This document shows, one piece after another, positions 21,028 to 44,491 of a stretch of 64,000 bases of DNA; position 1 is the first letter of the stretch; each line of letters begins with the position of its first letter. This DNA comes from Eledone cirrhosa (Eukaryota), in NCBI GenBank assembly GCA_964016885.1, contig OZ024740.1:374418001-374482000 (forward strand). The letters are read 5' to 3'. Under the pieces are notes generated by a model. The model made no database searches and had not been told where the DNA came from. It saw nothing but the letters and a program-made list of their open reading frames with translations. Both the position numbers and the translations under genes were made by a program.

Positions 21028-24000
21028 GGGAAGAAGACGCACGAGGTGACGGAGGTCATGAAATCGCTCCCGTAAGTTTTGAATTTTTAACATATTTAAA
21101 TCATTTGTGAAATAACAACTCTTAGTACAAATGCTACGTAAAGCACCCGGCTTGAGCCCCAAAAGATTCGGACCCAAAATATATTGTTATAAGGCTCAAA
21201 TATTCAAATATTCAACTTTGTATTGTACACTGTATATCCCCAAAAAAATGGCTATAAATGGAAGAAGAAGAACCCCCCCCCCTCCTCTCCTCTGGCTACA
21301 CTATATAGGACAGCTAAACTCACCAACACCAGAAACTAGATACACCGCCCACCCCATCATCTGTGTACACTAAACACAACAGCATTTTCACCTTCACCGC
21401 CACCGCTCACTACGGCCATCATTACCACCACTATCCCATCACCGCCGCCACCACCCCTTGACTCCTTCACTGCTGCTGCCACCGCTACAGCACCATCACT
21501 ACAGTAATACGGCTCAAATATTCAAATATTCAACTTTGTATTGTACACTGTATAGCCAAAAAAAAAAAAATAAAATGGCTATAAATGGAAGAAGAAGAAC
21601 CCCCCCCCCCTCCTCTCCTCTGGCTACACTATATAGGACAGCGAAACTCACCAACACCAGAAACTAGATACACCACCCACCCCATCATCTGTGTACACTA
21701 AACACAACAGCATTTTCACCTTCACCGCCACCGCTCACTACGGCCATCATTACCACCACTATCCCATCACCGCCGCCACCACCCCCTGACTCCTTCACTG
21801 CTGCTGCCACCGCTACAGCACCATCACTACAGTAATACGGTCGCATCACCGCCACCACTGCCTCGGTATCGACATCACCGCCACCACTGATCAGTATCGC
21901 CAACGCCGCTAGTCTCTGCTGGCTACCACTTCCACATTATAGAATTCCTACTACTAACAAAGAGGAAGGCATCAAAATATATAGATAGACTCAAAAGAAA
22001 AAAGAAAAAACAAACAACAAAAGCAGCACAGCAACAACAGTAAAAAACGAGAAAAACAGAGAAAAACAAAAACAAAAAAAGAAACCCCAAAAACGTAAAG
22101 AAAATAAGAATGAAGAGAGAAGCAGGCGGACGGACAGAGAAGAGGGGGGAAAAAGTAAAACTTAAAAAACAAAAACTAAGTCAGACATTCGAATACTACA
22201 TTACAATGAAACTTATGCTTATTCATTTTTGGGGCCCTTTCTGCCCGTGTGTTTGTTTGTTTATGTGTGTCCGTATACAGCGTGGTGATAATGCCACACA
22301 AGGGCCAAGTGGGATGGCGGATCCACAGATGGCTATGTAAACATACATTCGCCAATCCTCGATAAGAGTGTTTAAATATCGAACATAAACAGTTCGAATA
22401 ACGGTGAAATGGAGACTAGAACGTCATGTGACAGACTCTCACCCAACAGGTGCCCCCTGGCTCAGCAGCAGGAACCTGACTGTCAACGAAATACTGCTGA
22501 TGTTGGAGGAAGAAGAAGAAGGAAAGGGGCCAGAACCAACTGGACGAAAGAATTGAATAGAACTGTTATGCAATGCTACCTGAAAAGTAACCACAAGGAG
22601 AGGGGCTACAGGAGACGGATGCATAACATCTGGAACGAGATTGGTTTATTTAAATTAGATGAACAAAAATTGGCCGGGCAGGCTCGGGTAATAAGAACTA
22701 ATGGGTGGATAAGCGAGCTGGAACTGGAGGAACTGAGCAGAGAGAATGGCTTGGAGATGGCGGGTGTAGTATGCCAGACAAGCGAGCCGGCGGGAAATGA
22801 AGGTGAGGAGGTCCTGAGAGCGGAGGAACCACCCGAAGCAGACAATGATCTGAATACTGAGATAAATAATACCTGGAACAGAGATACGGCCACTGAGGAG
22901 ATGAATGCTGACGGGCTAGGACAAGATTCGGTTGACATCCTAAATTTAGTGGTAGATGAGTTGAACAATGATAGTGGGAGACCTATGAACCTAAGATTTG
23001 TAGACAGGAAAAAGTTAAAAGAAACAACAGCTAAGGTAAACAAAGTCATCCCATACCTTGAGGCGAGGAGTCTTCACCAGTGCAACAATATCCTCAAAGC
23101 AACAGCAAATACGGTGAGGAAACTACTTGGTATAAAAGCGAGAGGAAACAACAGACAAGAAAGAGCAGAGCCGTGGTGGAAGAAGCGACTGAGTGGGCAA
23201 ATCGGGGAAATGAGAAATGACATAGGAAAGTTTGAGTCACTACTGAATGGGACACTAAAAAACATAGGCACTAAAAATAGACTGGAAATAAAATACAAAA
23301 CTAGGAGTAAAAAGCTAAATATTATCATAGAGGAATTGAAGCAACGCATTGTAGCAAAGAGTGCCAAAATCAGGCGATACGAGAACAGAGTCAGTCAGTA
23401 TAAACAGAACCGCATGTTCGACAACAACCAGAAGATGCTGTTTGGACAGCTTGAGGGGAAAGAAAGAGGCACCGACTTGATCCCTGGGGCGGAACAAGCT
23501 AAAACATTCTGGAGAGGAATATGGGAGCAGGATGTTAGACACAATGCCCAGGCAGGGTGGATTGAGACAGTACAGAGGGAGATCGGTGAGCAGGCACAGC
23601 AACAGACTGATTTGAGTATCACAGTTGAAACTCTTAAGGGGCAAGCCAAAAAACTAACCAACTGGAAATCACCAGGCCCAGATGGTGTGCAGGGGTATTG
23701 GATTAAACATTTAACATCCCTCCACCCGAAGCTGACGGCCATGTTCAATGACTGCTTGGTGTCGGGTGAGGTGCCAGAGTGGTTGACAAAAGGTTCCACA
23801 GTTCTGATAATGAAAGACCGAATCAAGGGTAATGATGTTACCAACTATAGACCTATCACATGTCTGCCCGTAATGTGGAAACTGTTGACGAGCATTGTGT
23901 CTGAGGAAATCTACCATCACCTCCACACAAACAACTTGTTGCCGGACGAACAGAAAGGATGCCGAAAGAAGTCACGTGGTACAAAGGACCAGTTGCTTAT

Positions 24001-25875
24001 TGATAAGATGGTAATGGGGAATTGCAGGAGGAGACACACTGATCTTGCCATGGGATGGATAGACTACAGAAAGGCATTTGACATGGTGCCTCATTCCTGG
24101 ATCACCAAAAGCCTGGAGATCTTCAGGGTGGCAGATAACATCAGACAGTTGCTGGGCAGGAGTATGGGGTCCTGGGAGACAGAGTTGACATCAACTGGAG
24201 TATCCTTGGGAAGCGTGAAGATCAAGAGAGGTATCTTCCAGGGAGATAGCCTGTCCCCTCTGTTGTTTGTCCTTGCCCTGATGCCCTTGACCATTATGCT
24301 GCGAAAAGTGAGAGCAGGATACAAGTTGGGAAGGGGAGAGCTTACCATCAATCACCTCCTCTTCATGGACGATCTTAAGCTCTTCGGGAAAAGTGAGAAG
24401 GAGTTGGATGTGCTTGTTGACACTGTCCGTATTTTCAGCAGTGATATATGTATGCAGTTTGGTATTGGTAAATGTGGAGTCATTGTGATGAGGAGGGGTA
24501 GGTTGAGCAGAAGTAACGGGATCCAGATACCAACAGGTGAGATGATAAAGGAAATTGACTCTGAGGAAGGATACAAGTATTTGGGCGTTCTGGAGGCTGA
24601 TGGCATAAAGAACAAAAAAATGAAGGAATTGTTAAGAACTGAATACATTCGGAGAGTAAGGAGCGTATTGAAGTCACATCTGAACAGCAGAAATGCCATA
24701 AGCGCAGTAAATTCCCGAGCTGTGTCTATTATTAGGTACAGTGCGGGAATTCTGAGATGGAATGTTGCTGAACAAAAAGAAATGGATAGGAAGACTAGGA
24801 AGCTATTGACTATCTACAACATGTTCCACAAGAGGAGTGATGTCGATAGACTCTACCTAAGGAGATCTGAGGGTGGAAGAGGTCTTATCAGCATAGAGGA
24901 CTGTGTTCAGATGGAGAAAAACAACCTATACAAATACGTGACCTATAGTAAGGAGCCAATGCTCAGAGCTGTACTGAAGGAGGGGACAGTAGGCCAGGGG
25001 ATACCCAAGGAGGAAATAACATCAAGGAGGAAGAGCAGCCTTAAGGGAAAATCCCTTCATAGTACCTTCTTTGAGAAAACTGAATTTAGAGATCCATAGA
25101 CATGGAACTGGTTGAGAAGAGGAGACCTCAAAAAGGCTACAGAAGGAATGCTAATGGCTGCACAGGAGCAGGCCCTCAAAACGAAGTGGTTGAAGCACCA
25201 TATCTACAAGGAGGAGGCTAGCCCACTGTGCAGGATCTGTGGAGAGAGAGAGGAGACTGTGGCTCACATTGTGTCCGAGTGTAAACACCTAGCCCAGACC
25301 CACTATAAGGGCTGGAGACACGATGTGATGGGCAGGGTGATCCACTGGCACCTGTGCAAAGTAAACAATCTACCACATTCTGAGAAATGGTATGAGCATA
25401 GGCCAGAGGCGGTGATGGAGAACAGTCAGGTGAAGGTGCTGTGGGATTTTAGGATACAGACGGACAAAAAACTGGAACACAATAGACCTGACCTGGTGGT
25501 TGTGGACAAAGAAAAAAGATCGTGCCTGATTGTGGATGTGGCCTGCCCGTTCGACACGAGAGTGCAAGAGAAGGAGAGGGAGAAAATTAACCGATACCAG
25601 GACCTAAAGTGGGAGGTGAAAAGGATTTGGAACTGCCATGAAGTCAAAGTGATCCCGATTGTCATAGGCGCACTGGGGACTATCTCCAAAGGTTTCCAGG
25701 GATGGTTAAAGAAAATCGGCCCCTTCACGCTTTTTGGAACGCTTCAAAAGGCATGCTTGCTTGGAACGGCAAGAACCCTCCGATACGTCCTGAATATCTG
25801 AGGCTGCAGGTAGTGGCTTGATATTCAATCCAACGGACTTTCCAGTTGACCAACATCAATGACTGAGATTCAAGG
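21028..25875 (+). mobile_element. R4/Dong-like RLE non-LTR retrotransposon, family A (A1 subfamily), full-length, young
   Basis: (TAA)n on both flanks, a 1.4-kb leader with the same 5' start as the copy ending at 6961, a single long ORF and a 75-nt 3' UTR. Confidence 0.95.
22409..25801 (+). pseudogene. Family A polyprotein (Myb-like N-terminus, RT, CCHC, RLE; 1130 codons) with one premature stop at 25097-25099
   Basis: ORFs 22409-25099 and 25112-25801 are in the same frame, and the TAG corresponds to CAG in the 45-48 kb copy. Motifs: YRPITCL, DYRKAFD, QGDSLSP, FMDD, CRIC-x8-H-x4-C, RHD, RPD, D-VACP, EKINRY. Confidence 0.93.
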
Positions 25876-26168
25876 AATAACAATAACAATAATAATAATA
25901 ATAATAATAATAATGTTTTCTTTATTAACCACAAGGGTTTACATAAAGTAGACATTAAGGACAGTACAGGACAATACAGGACAATACAGGACGGTACAAA
26001 TGGGCATTTCTGCGTGTAAAAAAAACAGCGGATGAAATAAAATAACAAAGAAAAATTCCCCAATAGGGGGGAGACTTCCGATGGACATTTGTGGAGAAAG
26101 CCCATTAAAAGACCACAGTGGCCCTGACCACCAGGGCAAGTGCCCTCTCCCAGTTTTCCACCTTCAAT

Positions 26169-29100
26169 TTACAGACACATACTCAGAGAAGGCCCATTCA
26201 TTCGGGCCATACTTGCTTCTCTCACCCATCTTTTAACAAAATGCTGGGAAGAGAGCACTTCCCTCTCTACCCTGATTTTCCTTTTCAAATGAAATTTGAA
26301 AAAGTTAATCAGGGCATCACCGAAGAGGTAAGTGCTCCGTCTTCAGCCCTTTCAAACGTGTCCACCATACTATCTCTTTCGCCATGGCCACCAGACAGAT
26401 AAACACTGCCTGCCCTTCCCGGCTAAAGGAAGGGGGCGGGGCAACCCTCACGATGGACTCAGCTGATAGCTGGATCCGTCCTACATGTGACAGCAGGTGT
26501 TCGACATAAACCCACAAGTCAGCAATGCTCGGACACTGGACGAGTGCGTGCAGGACGGTTTCGTCGCCCTGTGCGCATCTCGGACATGCCCGACTGACGC
26601 CACCTCCATACCTGTAAAGTTTATCCCGAACTGGCAAAGCACCCCGGTAGCACTGCCAGGCCATGGATTTCTGGAAGTTGTCCATAGGCCCCGGCCCGAA
26701 AGTCCTTCCTAAGAGATTGGCTAGTTGTTTCTCGTCGACGCCTAGAGTTTCTCCAAGTACGTCGTCGCTCTTCCCCTCCACTAATCCCCTATAGAACGCC
26801 AAGGTGTAGTTTCCACCGATCACATTGCCCGATTGGTCGAGGGCTGTGAGCGCCTGGAGACATTCCAGTCTCCAAGCGCTCCCTCTCGGTCTTCCCTTGA
26901 CCCAGGACTGCAGCTCCGTCAAGGAGACGAGCTGGGGAAAAACGTGTCTAGCAAACGGCGATCACACCTGATCATCGTCGAGGAAGAGGTGGAGATGTCG
27001 TAGCCTGAGCGCGTGTCTGCGCATCATCAGCCACGGCATGCCCAGCCCTCCACGTACCGGGTGTTGACAGCAGATGGACCGCCTGACCATCGGAGCGCGT
27101 TCCTTCCACAAGCAGCGAAAGAGCAAACGCTCCAGCGCAGTCAGGCGGGGCTTATGACAAGGTACGACGGTCAGGCGGTAGTAGATGACGGACGCGATGT
27201 ACGCGTTAGCCACCTCCGCTCGACCTTTCAGGGATAGCTTCCTCTCGGCCCATTTCTGGGTGAGAGAAGCCACCCTGCTCGTCACCTCGTCCCAGTTTCT
27301 ATCCGTCTGGAGGTCTGGACCGAACCAGACCCCTAGCAATTTAACCGGTCCGTCTGTCCAGCGCCCGGCGACGCTGTTGGACGGCATGGACCTGCTTGTC
27401 CAGGTGCCGAGCTGCAGGCCCACTGACTTTTCCAGGTTGATCATTGCTCCTGTCACCGCTTCGTATTCTCTTAGTTTAGTGCCGATCGCCTCGATGTGTT
27501 TGGCGTTCGACACACACTACGGTGACATCGTCGGCATATGCTGACACGGATCTTCCGCATCCTAGTTCGCGCGGGATCCCCCTCAACGTCTCCAGTTTCT
27601 GCAGTAATGGCTCGAGAGTCAATACGTACAATAGGGACGAGAGGGGACATCCTTGGCGGACCGAGCGCATGATGTTGAACGGTTCCGAAAGGTGACCGTT
27701 CACTCTCACTACAGAGCAGATGTTGCTGTGCATGGCAGCGATCCAGCATCTGAAGACGGGCCCAAAGCCAGCCGCCCTCAGGACTGCCTCTTGGTAACGA
27801 TGGTCGACCCTATCGAAGGCTTTCGACTTATCTAAATTGATCAAAGACCCACCCGTGCCAGGTTCCCTAGCTACCCTCTCTACGATGTATCGGATGAGGT
27901 GGAGGTTGTCGTGGATGGATCTGTCGGGAATGGCGCATGTCTGTGCCTCTCCCACCAGACCACCAACGACAAGCGCCAACCTCTTTCCTTGCACCTTGGC
28001 CAAAATCTTGAACTCTGTGTTTAGCAGAGTTATGGGCCTAAAATTATCTATGTTATCCCCCTGTTCGGATCCTTTCTCAGCAGCGCCACCGCTCCTCGGC
28101 TCACAGAGCTGGGAATTCTCCCGTTCTGTTGCCAGTTGCAGTAGACATCCGCCAAGAGGCCTCCGAACAAGTTTGGCATTTGTACGTAAAGTTCATATGG
28201 CAGACCATCCAAACCAGGCGATTTACCCCTTGTGCAACTAGTCATTGCATCCCGTACTTCAGCGGTTGTTATCGGCTTTTCGCAACACTCCGCCTCAGTG
28301 GCCGAAAGCCGCGGCAGTCCGTCGAGGTAGACACTAAAGTCCATCCCTCGATCCGGCCCGCCACTGCCCCCGAACAGTTGAGCGAAGTGTCGCTGAAAAG
28401 CTTCACACATTTGCCCGGGATCGAGTAGCATGCGCCCGTCGTTGCCCACCAAAGACCGGATCGTGGCTTTGTTGCCACGGCGCGCCTCCGCCACTCGGGC
28501 CCATTGAACGGCTTTCGTCCCCTCGTGTCTGAGAGCACGCACCCTAGCTCTGACAACGCAGCCTTCGTGCTTTGCATTGACGAATTGGTCAAGGGCCAAT
28601 TTCGCCGCAAGTACGTCGGTCGCGATGCCTTTGCTAAGCGCCTCATCTAATTTTCTAACTAATTCTCCCTCTGCTCTATTTTTCTCTATTGCTAAAGTCT
28701 TACTAAACCTAATGGACTCTATTCTAATTGCTCTTTTCAGAGGAAACCACCACTTGTTGTCGACGATGGCCCCCGTCAACGCCCGCTTAACTAGTTCGCT
28801 AATCAGGTCTCTGTAGGCCTTGTGCGCTGGTAAGGACGCGTTTAGCTTCCAGTAGCCGGGTCCTCGTCTATGAAGCCTATCTAAGTCAAGCACACAGATC
28901 ACGAATTTGTGGTCCGTGTAGCTGACTATCTTGAATTGTGGACAGCCTATGCTAGACCTATCTATTTCCCTACAAAATACTCTATCTAGATATGATCTGG
29001 ATGACCCAATGCGATTTAACCAAGTCCACATTGGTACATTCGGGAAATCCATTCGGTACCTGTCAGACAGTTCAAAACGTCTGAGCAGGTTGGTGAGTCT

Positions 29101-29591
29101 CTTGCACCCTCCTTCCATATCCACTAATCCCACACAATCCCAGCATGCATCTAAGATCCCTATCCAGTCGCCCACTAACACTAAAGAGCGGGACGTTCCA
29201 AGAAAGGTCTCCAGGCGCCGGAAGAAATCAGGCCGCCCTACTCCTGTCGGGGCATAGACGGCCACTGATCTGAAAGCTTGGCCGTCTCCGCTGGTCACGT
29301 CCAGCACCACCAACTTACCTTCTGGGTCCAGGAAGATGGCCCGTATAGCAAGATCCAAACCTCTCCGAAAAAGCACAGCAACTCCCCCCCCCCCGATCCC
29401 GGACGGCTGGGAGATGCGTACACATCGTAGCCGCCGAAGATCGGTGCTAAAACCTGTGCTTCGGAGATTCTGGTCTCGCTGATGGCCACTACAACTATGT
29501 TTAGTGACCTGAGGTCGTTGAGCAGGTGGCCCTGCTTCCATGACGACCCCAAGCCACGCGCATTTATGCTGCCTATTCTGAGTGAGGTCAT
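26169..29591 (-). pseudogene. Tx1a ORF2 (AP endonuclease, RT, C-terminal Cys/His motif), frameshifted
   Basis: Motifs SINARGL, ISETR, VGDW, YLDRVF, TDHK, PGYWKLN, KSPGLDGLP, KAFDRVDH, RQGCPLS, YADD and CPRC...ETVLHALVQC. Confidence 0.92.
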
Positions 29592-29625
29592 GTTGAAAAG
29601 GAGTGGAAAAGATGGGAAAGACCAC

Positions 29626-31479
29626 TTACCTTACTTCTCGTAGGGGAAGGACGGTTTTTCCATCCTTTTCACTGCTTGTGGCCTCCTCAGGAAGGATGTC
29701 CTTATAAATCCTCCTGGAGAGTGCTTGTCGGAAGTCTCCGATGTCTTTGGGGAATTTTTGTTTTAGTGTCATGTACGTTTTCTGTGTGATGCGAGTGATT
29801 TGTATGTGTGGAGTTGGTGTGAATTTTGGGGTTGTTGTGTAGTCTTTTTCTGTGATGCTGGTATTGTGTTGGATGTAGTGTAATAATTGCTTGTTGTTCA
29901 AATTTAATGCTGTGTAGTGTGTATCGTTTTGGTTGTTTTGTTTTGTTTGCGTTTGTTGTGGGTTTGTTTCTGTTTCGCATTTTGGTGACTTTTGTGGTGT
30001 AGGTGATGGTGGTGTTGGGGTTAATGATGGTGATGGTGTTGGTGTTTGGGTTGATGGGGTTGGTGATGCTGGTGTGGATGGTGGCATATCTGTCCTAACT
30101 TTTTTGTTTCTTAATTTATTTGTTTCCCTCTGTATTTTCTTTTTGGAGGGGGAAGGAAGAGAATTTTTTTTTTTTTTTTTTCCGGATATCGTTTCCCACT
30201 CCTCGTCGTCACAATCTGTCTCCAGTTGTGATAGGCCGGGGAGTGGAAAATCCTCCACAGCCGTTAGTTTTGGTTGTGGCGTGGTGGATGGTGTAGGCGC
30301 TGGTGCTATTCTGAAGTGTTGGGTGGTGGTGGTGTTGGTTTTGCTGGTGGTGGTGGTGGTGTTGGTTTTGCTACTGTTGCTGGGGTTGTTGCTGTTATAG
30401 TTGCTTCTCTTGTTGCTGCTACAGTTGTTGCTGCCATCTCTGCTACTGGTGGTGTTGATGGTTGTGTCACTGGGGTGGGTAGGAGAGGTGGCCTCAACCT
30501 TTTAGCCTGAGGGCAGAAAGCCCTTAGGTGGGTTCCTTCACCACAAACGACACACCTAGGTCTTCTGCCCTCGACAATTACCGTGAGGTGGCTGCCGTGA
30601 GTGAGGTCTATTACCTCTGGGAACTCCTCAATGCTTTTTTGGTCCGCTTGGATCAGGAGCTCCATCCCAGATCCGGACCAGTTCTCCTTGTTTTCTTTTG
30701 CTATTGCTATTATTTTCGTGTTGGCTTCGATGCCGGCGAGGACAGCCGCTATTAGCCAGGGAATTTCGATGGCCGGTGGAACGTGGGTCACCGTGATCTT
30801 TACGAGTCTCAGGCCACAATAGCTTGGGACGAGTGTGAAGTCGTCACTTCTTAATGGGGGCCATGGAGTGTTCTCTAGACTCCTCTGGTGCTTCAAAGAA
30901 CACGTCCACGGTTCCATACTTTTGCCCACGTCTGATGTGGGTTTTCCTTGCCCACACATGTCCCAAAGCTTTTTGGATTTGGGACTCGGATGCCCGTTCC
31001 ACTCGGCGCGATTTTACATTTATTGTTCCATACGACACGGTGCATAGGCGCCGATGCTCCATTTTATTAGGTGAGGGGGGGGGGGTGAGGCTGACCCTGT
31101 ACCCATCTTTCTTTACCATTTGTTTGGCATTTTCTAAATCCTCCTGAGTTACCGTAAATGCTTCGAACTGTTTTGCTACTCTGGCGAAACTGAGGGGGGT
31201 GGTGTTTATAATGTCATTGTTGTTGTTCTTGCTTTCGTTAATATTAATTTTAGTTTCAGTTGTGGTGGTGGTGACATCAGTCGTCTTTGGTGGGGAAGAG
31301 TCCATTTTGCTTGATTTCATTTCGACATCACGAGTTAATTTATTTTTTTCTTCTTTTGTTTCTGTTGTCGCGGTGGTGGTGGTGGTGGTGGTGGTGGTTG
31401 TCGCGGTGGTGGTGGTGGTGGAGGCTTTAACACCTGCAGTCATTGGTAATGGCGGGAAATGAATGTCTGCCTGAGACAA
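29626..31479 (-). pseudogene. Tx1a ORF1 (gag-like, one CX2CX4HX4C knuckle, Pro/Thr-rich linker), in three frameshifted pieces
   Basis: ORFs 30844-31479, 30306-30959 (CVVCGEGTHLRAFC) and 29626-30258. Collinear similarity to ORF1 at 42.2-44.3 kb, e.g. RVERASESQIQKALG versus RVERATEAQIQKALG. Confidence 0.85.
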
Positions 31480-31820
31480 ATTTAAAATATTGCTAGTGCT
31501 TATATTTTTTTTGTGTTGGCAAATGTAGTAACATTTACGATGGTGGTGTCGGTGTGAGGTGTTAATTTGTGAGGGAGGCTTTCAGCTGCTTCGTGCAGAG
31601 GTGAAATAGCCATTTTTTTCAAAGAAATTTTTTTGATAATAATAAAAGTTTAATTTTGGGCACAAGGCCCCAATCTATTTGGGTGTCCTTTTCGGAAAAC
31701 GATGTATGTGCGCTTATAAACAGTTAACAATAAAATTTTCCATAAATGACAATTTTTAACAAACCGAAATAACAAAACTTTGCGGAGCTCACGATGATAC
31801 GAGTTACTACGTAGGTCGCC

Positions 31821-38473: not shown

Positions 38474-41400
38474 GATATATTTATTGGCCACCAGGGCTGA
38501 CATCAAGAAGAACATTAAAGACGGCACAGGATGGTACGATGTGGGTTTTGTGCGTGTAAATATTTTTATTGTTTATATAAGAAAAGAAAAAAATAACATA
38601 AAACATATATATATATATAAACAATAAAAATGAAAATTGAAACAATGAAAAATTCCTCAATAGAGGGGAAACCTCCGAGGGTTACTCGTGGCGTAAACCA
38701 CACAAAAGACAACGGCCACCATGACCACCAGGGCAAGCGCCCTCTCAATGTTTCCATCTCTCAAACTACAGACGTATATTCATAGTGGTCCCGTTCACTC
38801 GGACCGTTCTGGCTACATTCACCCACCGTTCAACAAACTTGCTAGAAAGCAGCACTTGCCTCTCCACCATGAATTTCCTCTTCAAGTGAAACTTTAAAAA
38901 GTTAATTTGGGATTCGCCGAAGATGAAAGTGTTTGTCTGTAATCCTTTTAACCTTGTCCACCACACAATCTCTTTCGCCATGGCCACCAGGCAGATGAAA
39001 ACCGCCTGCCCTTCCTCTTCGAAGGAAGACGGCGAGACCATCTGCACAATGGACTCAGGCGATAACTGGATCAGTCCTACACCAGACAGCAACTGTTTGA
39101 CATAGCTCCACAAGTCAGCAATGCTCGGGCACTGAACGAGTGCGTGCACGAAGGTTTCGTCGCTCTGCGCGCATCTCGGACAGGCTCGGCTGACGGCACT
39201 TCGGGGCTTGTAGAGCTTATCTCGAACCGGCAGCGCTCCCCGGTAGCACTGCCAGGCCAGGGATTTTTGGAAGTTATCCATAGGCCCCGGGCTGAAAGTT
39301 CTCTGGAAGAGAGCAAGCAGCTGATCTTCTTCGACGCCCAGGATCTCTCCGAGAACGTCGACGCATCTCCCCTCCAATAGTCCTCTATAGAACGCCGAGG
39401 TGGATGTTCCACCGATACTGGTGCCCAACTGGAAGAGGGCAGTGAGCGCCTGGAGACATTCTAGTTTCCAAGCGCTATCCCTCGGTCTTTTTCTGATCCA
39501 GGACTGCAGCTCCATCAAGGAAACGAGCTGTGGGAAAACGTGCTTGGCGAACGGCGTCCACACCCGTTCACCATCAAGGAAGCACCAGAGATATCGCAGC
39601 CTCAACGCATGTTTGTGCATCATCAGCCATGGCATGCCCAGTTCTCCACGCAACGGGTGTTGGCAGCAGATGGATCGTCTGACCATGAGAGCGCGTCCCT
39701 TCCACAAAAAGCGGAAGAGGAGGCGCTCCATTTTGGTGAGAGTTGGGCTGGAGCAAGGGACGACGGCGAGGCGGTAGCAGATGACGAATGCTATGTACGC
39801 ATTCGCCACTTCCGTCCGGCCTTTTAGGGACAGCTTCCTCTCAGCCCATTTCTGGGTGAGGGAGGCGACCCTGCTCGTCACCTCGTTCCAGTTTTTCTCC
39901 ATCTGGAGGTCCGGTCCGAACCAGACCCCGAGCAATTTAACCCGTCCGTTCCTCCAACGCTCCACGACGCTGTCGGACGGCATGGACTTGCCTCTCCAGG
40001 TGCCGAGCTGCAAGCCCACCGACTTTTCCTGGTTTATGTTTGCTCCTGCCACCGCTGCGTATTCCTTGAGAGCGGTGCCGAGCATCTGGACGTGTCTGGT
40101 GCTCGATACCACCACTGTGACGTCGTCAGCGTAATCCGACTCGGATATCCCGCATCCTAGTTCGCGTGGGACGCCCCTCGTCGTCCCCAGTTTGTGCAGT
40201 AACGGCTCCAGAGTCAATACGTACAAGAGGGACGAGAGGGGACAACCCCTGCGGACTGAGCGCATGATGCTGAACGGCCGCGACAGGTGACCGTTCACCC
40301 TCACAACTCAGCAGACATGGCTGTACATTGCTGCGATACAACCCCTGAAAACCGTCCCGAAACCGTCTGCCTTGAGGACCGCTGCCAGGTACCGATGGTC
40401 TACCCTATCGAATGCTTTCGTTTGATCCAAGTTGATCAGGGCCCCATCCTTGCCATGTTCTTTAACCAGCCTCTCTATGATGTATCGCATGAGGTGGATG
40501 TTGTCGTGTATGGATCTGTCAGGAATGGCGCATGTCTGCGCCTCTCCCACCAGACCCTTGACGACAAGCGCCAACCTCGTAGCTAACACCTCCGCCAAAA
40601 TCATGAACTCTGCGTTTAGCAGGGTTATGGGCCGGAAATTATCCATAACATCCCCCTTGTTCGGGTCTTTTCTCAGCAGCCCAAAAGCTCCCCAGCTCAC
40701 AAAACTGGGAATGCTCCCGTTCTGCTGCCAATTGCAGTAGACGTCTGCCAAGACGTCACCGAACAAGTCTGGCATAATTGCATAAAGCTCGTAGGGAAGA
40801 CCATCTAAACCTTATCCCCTTGTGCAGTTAGCCGTCGCTTCCCGTATTTCACCGGCTGATATTGTCTTTTCGCAACACTGTGCTGCGGTCGTCGAGAGCC
40901 GAGGCAGTCCGTCGATGTATGCACTGAAGTCCATGCCTCGATCCGGGCCGCCGCCGCTCGCGAACAGTTCAGCAAATTGCTGCTGAAAACCTTCACACAT
41001 CCGCTCGGGTTCGAGCATCACACACCCGATTTGGTCAGACAAAGACCGAATTGTGGCTTTGTACCCACGTCGCGCCTCTGCCACCCGGGCCCACTGGACG
41101 GCTTTTGTCCCCTCGTGTTTCAGAGCAGGCGCTCTAGCTCTGGCAACGCAGCCTTCTTTTTTTGCGTTGAAGAATTGGTCGAGTGCCAATCTCTCGCAAG
41201 CACGTCGGTTGCGATGCCTGTCCTAAACGCCTCTTCTAGCTTTCTGACTAGCTCTCCCTCTACTCTATTTTCCTCTATCACTACTCCTTTGCTAAACCTA
41301 ATCGACTCTACTTCAATTGCCCTTTTCAGGGCGAAACACCACCTGTTGTTGACGACCGCTCCCGTCAACGCCCGCTTAACTAATACGCTAACCCGGTCTC

Positions 41401-44400
41401 TGTAGGCTTTGCGCGCCGGGAAAGACGCGTTCAGCTTCCAGTAACCAGGCCCTTGTCTATGAAGTATGTCTATGTTGATCTCACAGATCACAAATTTGTG
41501 GTCTGTGTAGTCGACTATTTTAAATTGTGGACAACTTATCCTAGCCTTATCTAGTTCTCTGCAGAAAACCCTATCGAGACACGATCTGGATGACCCGATG
41601 CGGTTTGTCCATGTCCACATTGGCACATTCGGGTGATCCAGTCGATACCTGTCAGACAGTTCAAAACGTCTGAGCAGGTTGGTGAGCCTATTGCACCCTC
41701 CTCCCCTATCCACTAACCCCAGACGATCCCACCGTGCATCCAAGATACCGTTCCAGTCGCCCACTAACACTAAAGAGCGGGACGTTCGAAGAAAGGTCTC
41801 TAGACGTCTGAAGAAATCTGGCCGTCCTGCCCCTGTTGGGACGTAGACGGCTACTAGCCTGAAAGCATTGCCTTCGCTGCCGGTCACGTCCAGCACCACC
41901 GACTTACCTTCTGGGTCCAGGAAGATGGCCCGTATCGCGAGATCCAAGCCTCTCCGAAAAAGGACGACAACCCCTCCCCCGATCCTGGACGGCTGGGAGA
42001 TGCGTATACATCGTAGCGGCCGAAGATCGGTGAGAAGGCCTGTGCCTCGGAGATTCTGGTTTCACTGATGGCCACCAAATCCATGCTTAGTGGCCTGAGG
42101 TCATTGAGCAAGTGACCCTGCTTCAAAGATGACCTCAGGCAACGTGCATTTATACTGCCTGTGTACAGCCATGTTGGATGAGAAACGGGCCATGTGAGAA
42201 AGGGTCACTTACCTTGTTGGTGTGGTGAAGGGACAGTAGAACCGTCCCTTTCGCTGGTCATGGGTGTTTCCAAGAGGATGTCAGTGTATATCCTCTTTGG
42301 TAACCGACCATCTGAAGTCTCCAACTGCGTTGGGGAATTTTTGTTTTAAAGGTTTTTACTGTTCTATTGAGATTTCGATTATGCTTATGTTTGTCGGGAG
42401 AGTTCTTGGTGTTGGTGGGGTATAGTAGTTTCTTTTCTGTGATATCTGTGTGCTGCTTTATATATTGTATGAGTTCTTTTTTTGCCATGTTTATGGCTGT
42501 GTACTTTTTGGGGGGAGGGGTGATTTTGTTGCTGTTTTCTTCTTGTTGCTGTATGCTGTGTTTGTCTTGTTGTGTTTGCGTTGTTGGTGTTTGTGGTGGT
42601 GATGGTGGTGGGGTTGCTGCAAGTTTCTTTGCTGCCTTTACCCCTCTTTGTATGCCTTCGCTTTTGGAGGGTGAATTTAAGGTTTTTTTTTGTTTTTTGT
42701 TTTTTTGTGGCAGGCTCTTTGCCACTTCACTCCCGCCTCAAACTCCATGTCGGATTCTGTGGCGTCTGGGAGGGGTATGTGCTCCACGGTTGTTGGTGGT
42801 GGTAGTGGAGCCCTCTTCGGCAATGTTGTTGCTGGTGTAGCTACTTTAAATGTAGCTATTGGTGTTGCCGCTACTGACGATGCTGCTTTAGTTATCCGTG
42901 GCCTTCTTACGGGTGCTACGGACGTTGCTCTCCTACTCAGTGGAAGGGGCTTCTTCGTTTGTTGCCTGTCCTGCTCTTGGTAGCAGCGGACCAGGTATTG
43001 GAAAGAAAGGGGCTCTCTTCGCTGTCTTCTGCGGGCAAAGGTCCCTGAGGTTACCCTTCGACCCACAGTGATAACATTTTGGCCGTCTTCCTTCTACACT
43101 TATAGGGGGTTGGAGTCCTTCCTCGATGTATATGATATCGGGGATAGCCTCGATACGTTCCTTGTCAGTTTGTATAAGCATTTGCGTGCCTATACCTGAC
43201 CAGTTCTCTCTCCCTATTTTTTCTACTTTCAGCATGGTCGCCCTGTTCTCAATTCCAGCAAGGACAGACGCGGCCAGCCAAGGTATGGGCACGTCGGGTG
43301 GGACCTGGGTCACTTTGACCCTCACAATTTTCTGCCCGCAGTAGGAGGGCACCAAGACTATCTCCTCACTCTTTAGGGTTTCCAAAGAGTGAGACTTTGC
43401 TTCCTGGGGGTGGCGAAAATTACGTCTAATATGGCGTACTTTCTGCCTCGGGTGATGTGGGTTTTGCGTAGCCAGACGCACCCCAAGGCCTTTTGGATTT
43501 GAGCCTCTGTGGCTCTCTCCACTCGATGTGAGATTTTGCTTACGGTGCGGTAAGTCACCGTCCATAGCTGCTGGTCCTTGAAAAAATCGGGTGGAGGTTT
43601 CAGGGAAACTCTATTTGCGCTTCTTGTCACCATGACCCTTGCGACTGCCATCTCCTCCTCTGTGACTAACACTGTCTCGATATTTCGGGCGACCCTGCAA
43701 AAGAAGTGGTCTCTTTTTCAGCAGGACCACTATTGCTGCCGCTACTGGTCTTACTGGTGGTGCTTAGGTTGCTATTACAGGTATCGGTGTCATTGTTATT
43801 GTTTACGCTGGTACAGTTGTTGGTGTTGTTGTTGTTGTTTTCGTTGATACTGTTGCTGTTGTTACTGTTATTGTGGCTGTTTTTATTATTGTTGTTTTTG
43901 TTGATACTGTTCCTACTATTATTGTTGATGTGGCTGTTGTTATTGTCCTTATTATTGTCGTTCTCGACCTTACCGCTGTTATTTTTGTTATTGTCGTTCT
44001 CGACCTTACCGCTGTTATTTTTATTATTGCCGTTCTCGACTTTACCGCTGTTATTTTTGGTGTTGTTGTTGGTGTTGCTGTTGGTGTTATTGTTGGTGTT
44101 GTTTGTGTTAGGAATATTTGGTAATTTTAAATCTGTAACAATCTTTTTTCCTTTGTAATATTTCCGTTTATATTTACCTCCGCTGGAACGCTGTCTTGTT
44201 GACATACTGATAATGGTTCCCTCTCTCTGTCTTGTCTGACAGCGCTCTCTCTCTTTCTTGTGTATCCATGTTGAAATTAAAAAAATATGTATAGTTTTAC
44301 ACAAATACGAATACGACACCCCGTAAAGGGGTGCCGTATTATTTACTAGTGAACCCCTGTATTAGGTCGGTCACTTCTTCTAAACTTTTCTCAAATTTAA

Positions 44401-44482
44401 AACTTGAATAAAAGGTTTAGAACGGTTGAAAAAGAGGTAAAACGTTGAAAAAAACTGGAGGCGATAAGAACGTGGCTTCACC
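38474..44482 (-). mobile_element. L1/Tx1-clade non-LTR retrotransposon, family Tx1b, full-length, frameshifted
   Basis: ORF1 at about 42205-44269 (Asn-rich N-terminus with three 33-bp repeats at 43955-44060; CYHCGSKGNLRDLC). ORF2 at 38766-42172 (VGDWN, TDHK, KAFDRVDH, YADD, CPRC). The 3' end is AATAAA then (ATT)n, with the microsatellite on both sides. Confidence 0.92.
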
Positions 44483-44491
44483 AACAATAAC

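Follow-up and report, generated by a model that had tools for sequence, protein, structure and literature searches.

A conserved splice-donor motif at the ORF1 stop codon of Tx1-type LINEs in Eledone cirrhosa

A Tx1-type LINE on the minus strand

The window analyzed in this study is the whole stretch of 64,000 nucleotides of Eledone cirrhosa DNA at positions 374,418,001 to 374,482,000 of contig OZ024740.1, and its minus strand carries a copy of a LINE that we refer to as family A. The features of this copy are listed below in window positions, with a slash marking the cut of a putative splice site.

25915..31820, minus strand: family A LINE copy, full-length but broken, about 5.9 kb, with (ATT)n on both sides and both ends located
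29626..31613, minus strand: ORF1, about 660 aa in open copies, with a CCHC knuckle CVVCGEGTHLRAFC; 3 frameshifts in the window copy
29624..29632, minus strand: conserved splice-donor motif AAG/GTAAGT holding the ORF1 stop TAA (29628-29626)
29595..29621, minus strand: pyrimidine-rich inter-ORF spacer, present in the families of genome G000, absent from family M
29589..29595, minus strand: CAAC ATG start of ORF2, with an ATG at this place in 11/11 lineage representatives
29578..29580, minus strand: acceptor CAG of the preliminary description, within ORF2 codons CTC AGA (Leu4-Arg5); weak and not kept as YAG
29313..29321, minus strand: second AAG/GTAAGT, located in the endonuclease at codons E-G-K-L; of the seven elements scored, family A alone has it in perfect form
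26169..29591, minus strand: ORF2 (APE, RT, zf-RVT), 1,139 aa in the copy L035; 4 frameshifts in the window copy
26010..26031, minus strand: 3' UTR site with the T-tract ACACGCAG/AAATG, the highest-scoring acceptor downstream in family A and a candidate partner of the donor; rank 1/265, shuffle p 0.09
25915..25926, minus strand: AATAAA and then the (ATT)n tail of the copy

Family A is an ordinary L1-group LINE of Tx1 type, where the name Tx1 is our presumption for it and its relatives, and the RT tree holds unnamed relatives only. The window copy is 96% identical to the natural copy L035 over an alignment of 5,998 columns and is dead, owing to its frameshifts in both ORFs. ORF2 of L035 matches the Pfam families Exo_endo_phos, RVT_1 and zf-RVT, all above the cut-off, and the closest PDB match of the family A ORF2 is human L1 ORF2p (E 1e-51). 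The CCHC motif of the family A ORF1 is visible by eye, yet it has no Pfam match; ORF1 of family M (see below) contains a zf-CCHC above the cut-off. Using a 26-nt pattern covering the unspliced donor, we counted at least 2,189 copies of family A in genome G000, often in tandem at about 5.9 kb. The repeated insertion target of this LINE group is seen in its (ATT)n or (TATC)n flanks and in tandem arrays with a spacing of 5.8-5.95 kb.

Several other observations were made on family A. An A-run in ORF1 differs in length among copies (window about 30170; L007, L008, L013), which shifts the frame near -535 in many of them and is due either to slippage or to assembly error. The window copy adjoins another RT-encoding LINE on the plus strand (22376-25801), with frames of 907 and 233 aa and one stop between them. 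Hairpin-like motifs (GAGAGGG..CCCT; CCCTATTG.GG) are common to the 3' UTRs of families A, B, Cp, C2 and D (window 26160-26050), and are candidates for recognition by ORF2. In addition, an Octopus sinensis protein model (P0057, tectonic-3-like) contains a 66%-identical piece of the family A ORF2, which stops at FLDPE, coinciding with the endonuclease-internal AAG/GTAAGT (window 29321-29313); this is either an exonisation or a gene-model artefact.

The linker between ORF1 and ORF2

As stated in the preliminary description, the linker on the minus strand contains a 52-nt GT...AG interval (29629-29578, GTAAGT...CTCAG, preceded by GTAAG). Its consensus donor holds the stop codon of ORF1, which ends in LREVR*, and removal of the 52 nt joins ORF1 and ORF2 in one open frame, with the predicted junction GAAGTAAG/AATAGGCA. 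The CAACATG start described for ORF2 is present as well, its ATG at 29591 opening MTSLRIGSINARG. The linker is identical in 30/30 best-matching copies, which were picked for their identity. An AG-free pyrimidine tract ending in CAG had also been described: AG is indeed absent between +6 and the CAG, but the tract adjoins the donor rather than the AG, as the C/T content is 93% at +9..+35 versus 60% in the 15 nt before the acceptor AG. The interval has GT-AG ends and a strong donor, as spliceosomal introns do. However, according to splice-site scores computed for donors and acceptors alike with approximate weights, the CAG at +52 ranks 23rd among 265 downstream AGs, i.e., no better than chance, and this rank together with the tract on the donor side speaks against a strong acceptor with an adjoining tract at this place. 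As to the length of 52 nt, the papers searched gave no minimum intron size for a cephalopod. Among the 15 matches listed out of 614 between L034 and the contigs of four out of six sequencing runs of unrecorded kind, no linker joint was found, and one 2,370-nt contig of X5, also a run of unrecorded kind, crosses the linker unspliced; neither result counts for or against splicing.

Conservation of the donor motif among LINE families

A copy of a sister family in the window carries the same donor:

38480..44485, minus strand: family B copy, same donor (GT at 42212), phase 1

We compared 11 lineages, namely ten in G000 (A, A2, F, G, B, C, Cp, C2, D and E, of which E, F and G are represented by one damaged copy each) and family M. 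The ten G000 lineages fall into three clades, with a fourfold-site identity of 0.43-0.62 between clades and 9/42 fourfold-site columns invariant over all ten; each has an ORF1-end donor, a pyrimidine spacer and an ATG 25-54 nt further on. Of the conservation of donor, acceptor and phase, to which the preliminary description had pointed as a check, that of the donor holds: G(-1) and the following G, T and A are invariant in 11/11 lineages, and the +5 G and +6 T are found in 10/11, while positions -4..-15 and +7..+9 around it vary. The acceptor and the phase are not conserved. The donor is in phase 2 in A, A2, F, G, D and E and in phase 1 in B, C, Cp and C2, and the motif survives these frame changes, ORF1 ending in R* or G* in phase 2 and in GK* in phase 1. 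Moreover, the ORF1-end donor is the top or tied-top one among about 300 GT sites in 7/7 full elements. It is beyond chance at the ORF1 stop: of the other stop-like triplets in five elements, 1,074 in all, only 3 lie within 6 nt of a donor with a score of at least 10. Judging from these comparisons, the donor is likely a conserved RNA-level signal, one that is wider than a single window could reveal to the preliminary description. Two other ideas about the linker were discarded: a fixed +1 frameshift at AGG-TAA is ruled out, as the frame offset between ORF1 and ORF2 differs among families, and a U12-type AC acceptor was set aside on inspection by eye.

The most distant lineage with the motif is family M, whose ORF2 is 41% identical to those of the G000 families. 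It forms tandem arrays, at least 63 copies in total, on contigs of a GTDB bacterial MAG (L279-L320, G001); these contigs are probably contaminating animal host DNA. The linker of M reads GAG TAA G/GTAAGT, lacks the pyrimidine tract and has the ATG 13 nt on, in 55/55 matches in overlapping loci. In the phylogenetic tree, M, N (L311) and P0003 form a sister clade of the G000 families with a support of 95/96. Family N has no ORF1-end donor, and shows a TAATG stop-start overlap instead. No donor above 8.5 was seen near the ORF junction in the other 20 loci scored, nothing was found in viral contigs or in the first metagenome scan, and a search for M-like families in G000 returned only an unrelated repeat and one C-type copy.

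Two side observations concern young families and 5' UTRs. Family C2 (L205, L206; G000:C1:423.36-423.42 Mb and others) is very young with both ORFs open, has its copies arranged head to tail, up to ten per array and spaced at 5,840 bp, and shows a strong acceptor CCTGCCAG/C directly 5' of the ORF2 ATG, 36 nt from the donor. Donor-like motifs are also located 30-90 nt from the 5' end in the 5' UTRs of L206, L221, L208 and L292, where they come after a GCTCC that is common to these 5' UTRs near +26-30; the ORF1 ATG is preceded by a palindromic hairpin.

Search for spliced genomic copies

The preliminary description had proposed to look for genomic copies lacking exactly the 52 nt. Allowing up to one mismatch, we found 0 junction matches versus 2,189 unspliced copies of family A. 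When only the exon side was fixed, 16 places deviated from GTAA versus the same 2,189, and none of them is spliced (14 linker variants, one chance match and one deletion without an AG). Similarly, there were 0 deviants versus 343 donor-side matches in C2-type elements, and 6 deviants versus 88 in family D, none of them spliced. The search in family B, which covered only exons starting with A or G and then non-T and for which no denominator was counted, yielded five places, none spliced, two being variants and three lying within an unrelated 59-bp satellite. As the junction patterns end in a variable gap plus T, some junctions can be missed by them. The search from a weaker donor located 5 nt upstream returned 8 places, each a point variant, and the acceptor side in the 3' UTR gave 196 matches, with no join to ORF1 among the 100 matches listed.

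The candidates rejected as junction copies include L130 and L204, which are chance matches outside the element, and L141, a deletion reaching +347 with no AG. L096, L122 and L150 are internally deleted copies in which the 5' UTR or part of ORF1 is joined to the ORF2 ATG; they were rejected as spliced copies since the deletions apparently arose at short microhomologies. The 59-bp tandem satellite is itself at least 10 kb long (L344, L345; G000:C28:106.68 and 112.52 Mb).

Candidate acceptors and a second donor

The best-scoring downstream acceptor is located in the 3' UTR in four of seven elements (A, D, M and M2), and late in ORF2 in B, Cp and C2. Taken singly, the 3' UTR acceptors of A, D, M, M2 and N score hardly better than shuffled sequences (p 0.04-0.19), that of family D is present in 1/3 copies, and among the eight elements scored a good 3' UTR acceptor is absent in B, Cp and C2. 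No acceptor is conserved among the elements scored. We found a second donor 0-40 nt past the ORF2 stop in 5/8 elements (Cp, D, M, M2 and N; shuffle p <=0.03) and none there in A, B and C2; M, M2 and N have full donor and acceptor pairs and intron-like stretches of about 140-250 nt in the 3' UTR. An exon junction within about 50 nt past a stop codon escapes nonsense decay, and by this rule of thumb the ORF2-end donors fall inside the decay-avoiding zone.

Interpretation of the ORF1-end donor

Taken together, these data make a conserved regulatory donor likely and an ORF1-ORF2 fusion unlikely. The motif at the ORF1 stop is conserved with free phase, the ORF2 AUG is conserved, and no spliced copies were found. 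The explanation that we put first, tentatively and on grounds of sequence and analogy, is that the ORF1-end AG/GTAAGT serves as a U1-binding donor and that some of the transcripts are spliced from it to an acceptor far downstream, which would remove ORF2 and give an ORF1-only mRNA. U1 would bind the donor at the ORF1 stop, and a fraction of the RNA would be spliced to a distal acceptor, leaving an ORF1-only mRNA whose junction would be near enough to the stop to escape nonsense decay. The unspliced RNA would provide ORF2 from its own AUG by re-initiation, and would also serve as the template. U1 binding, splicing, the acceptor and a purpose, namely an excess of ORF1 protein over ORF2, are inferences from the sequence. 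The spliced RNA could escape copying because it would lack ORF2 and, in family A, the hairpin-like motifs of the 3' UTR, as we propose.

Several results bear on splicing to an ORF1-only mRNA. The free phase, together with a stop just before or after the cut, fits a product in which ORF1 is brought to its end, and the second donors at the ORF2 end and the 3' UTR acceptors in 4/7 elements count for it as well. Counted against it are the lack of a conserved acceptor and of a spliced copy of any kind, given that spliced RNA mobilized in trans might leave some copies, and the lack of the ORF1-end donor in N and of the ORF2-end donor in A, B and C2. A broader version, in which the whole LINE clade would use the host spliceosome through donors at both ORF stops, is doubtful. 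Three RNAs would then arise, namely an ORF1-only mRNA, an mRNA spliced in the 3' UTR and the unspliced template, of which only the last would be copied, and family A might make a fusion as well.

Alternatively, the motif might bind U1 snRNP without splicing and govern 3'-end formation, such that cryptic poly(A) sites are suppressed to obtain full-length RNA, and the ORF2-end donor might damp the terminal signal. In favor of such a role, the donor is conserved with neither a conserved acceptor nor a spliced copy, AATAAA or ATTAAA occurs within 700 nt upstream of the donor in 5/7 elements, several 5' UTRs have donor-like sites too, and U1 plays such a role in the Arabidopsis element EVD, according to the parts of that report consulted (PMC5580714). 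However, no poly(A) signal is conserved just downstream of the donor, one near +1150 being found in B, Cp and C2 only; the closeness of the site to stop codons is left unexplained; and M, M2 and N have their complete donor and acceptor pairs in the 3' UTR. We regard U1 binding without splicing as rather unlikely.

It is quite improbable that the motif is merely donor-like and serves translation, for instance as a stop context or a hairpin aiding re-initiation at the ORF2 AUG. It does always lie at the ORF1 stop, 13-54 nt 5' of the conserved AUG, family N has the TAATG overlap in its place, termination-reinitiation is known for SART1 and L1 (PMC5972666, consulted in part), and in the C clade a hairpin covers the motif (fold z -1.8 to -3.8). 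Nevertheless, the invariant bases are those of the U1 consensus, the motif is retained even though the position of the stop varies, between 4 nt on the 5' side of the cut and 5 nt on its 3' side, no hairpin at the donor is common to all lineages (z +0.5 to -3.8), and the same motif recurs past ORF2, where nothing is left to re-initiate.

The preliminary description had suggested that splicing out of the linker may make a Gag-Pol-like ORF1-ORF2 fusion. Such an intron of 50-68 nt, as a minor or the main route to the polymerase, is distinctly unlikely, and our results do not support the fusion as the purpose of the donor, although a minor isoform of this kind may occur in family A. Going downstream from the donor, the first AG at a distance of 45 nt or more keeps the frame in 3/11 lineages (A, A2 and D), in C, Cp and C2 the frame is kept by the first YAG more than 45 nt away, and some in-phase AG occurs at 45-70 nt in 9/11 lineages, where G is counted by phase since its copy is damaged. 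However, the R-[IV]-G codons supply AGs in both phases anyway, the AG is an AAG in C, Cp, C2, D and E and is missing at that site in the G copy, the donor-AG distance in E would be 39 nt, and the pyrimidine tract is on the donor side. In family M the ORF1 stop is upstream of the cut, and therefore no acceptor can fuse ORF1 to ORF2. Furthermore, genomic copies should be left by a fusion mRNA, as it would provide ORF2 in cis, and there are none versus 2,189; in human L1, 131/6,609 full-length elements (about 2%) are spliced copies, according to the parts of the source consulted (PMC5860796).

Finally, shared ancestry plus chance without function is the least probable reading, for although TAR is a stop codon in six lineages, about 1/5 of the fourfold sites are invariant among the G000 families anyway, and neither N nor the more distant scored elements carry the motif, it has persisted despite shifts of the frame, despite lying outside coding sequence in M and over a divergence of roughly one substitution per RT site, against the low background rate given above.

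Comparison with known systems

The elements described here resemble other L1-group Tx1 LINEs in having two ORFs, an ORF1 with a CCHC knuckle, an ORF2 with APE, RT and a zinc motif, and an ORF2 AUG of its own after a short spacer, as well as in their insertion in (ATT)n or (TATC)n and their tandem arrays, the clade being a microsatellite-targeting one. They differ in the clade-wide perfect donor at the ORF1 stop, of which we found no description. In Octopus vulgaris, 13 recently active L1-Tx1 families are reported (PMC13282606, consulted in part), and neither 'splic' nor 'intron' occurs in the main text of that paper. In the parts of the literature consulted we found no conserved ORF1-end donor or ORF1-only spliced mRNA in any LINE, and Repbase notes or supplements could describe the motif.

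The way in which LINEs set their ratio of ORF1 to ORF2 protein is known for few elements, and is explained by re-initiation on one RNA. In this respect SART1 and L1, with their termination-reinitiation, are similar to our elements in the separate ORF2 AUG near the ORF1 stop, to which the TAATG of family N corresponds, but no donor motif is mentioned there, as far as the consulted parts of the source go (PMC5972666). Human L1 SpIREs likewise involve splice sites inside a bicistronic L1 RNA, located in the 5' UTR and ORF1, and their spliced copies are termed dead ends in the parts consulted (PMC5860796), in line with the general view of L1 splicing as a dead end. In contrast, the donor described here is conserved across families and leaves no spliced copy. 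Its retention at the ORF1 stop across families that share 41% ORF2 identity suggests that U1 binding or regulated splicing is under selection in a LINE, and strong donors by the thousand in this genome could also affect the splicing of host genes.

A further parallel is the Ty1/Copia element EVD of Arabidopsis, in which a spliced GAG-only mRNA (shGAG) is made from a conserved U1-type donor, and U1 also blocks early termination, according to the parts of the report consulted (PMC5580714). Both systems have a conserved U1-type donor at the boundary of the structural protein and the polymerase. However, EVD belongs to the LTR elements and encodes GAG and POL in a single frame; its short intron includes an acceptor, and a poly(A) site is located just downstream. 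The LINEs, in comparison, contain two ORFs and lack both a conserved acceptor and a poly(A) signal nearby. EVD has a full-length unspliced and a short spliced RNA, whose LINE counterparts are predictions. Should the broader, clade-wide use of the spliceosome prove true, a non-LTR element would switch between RNA isoforms in the manner of retroviruses or copia.
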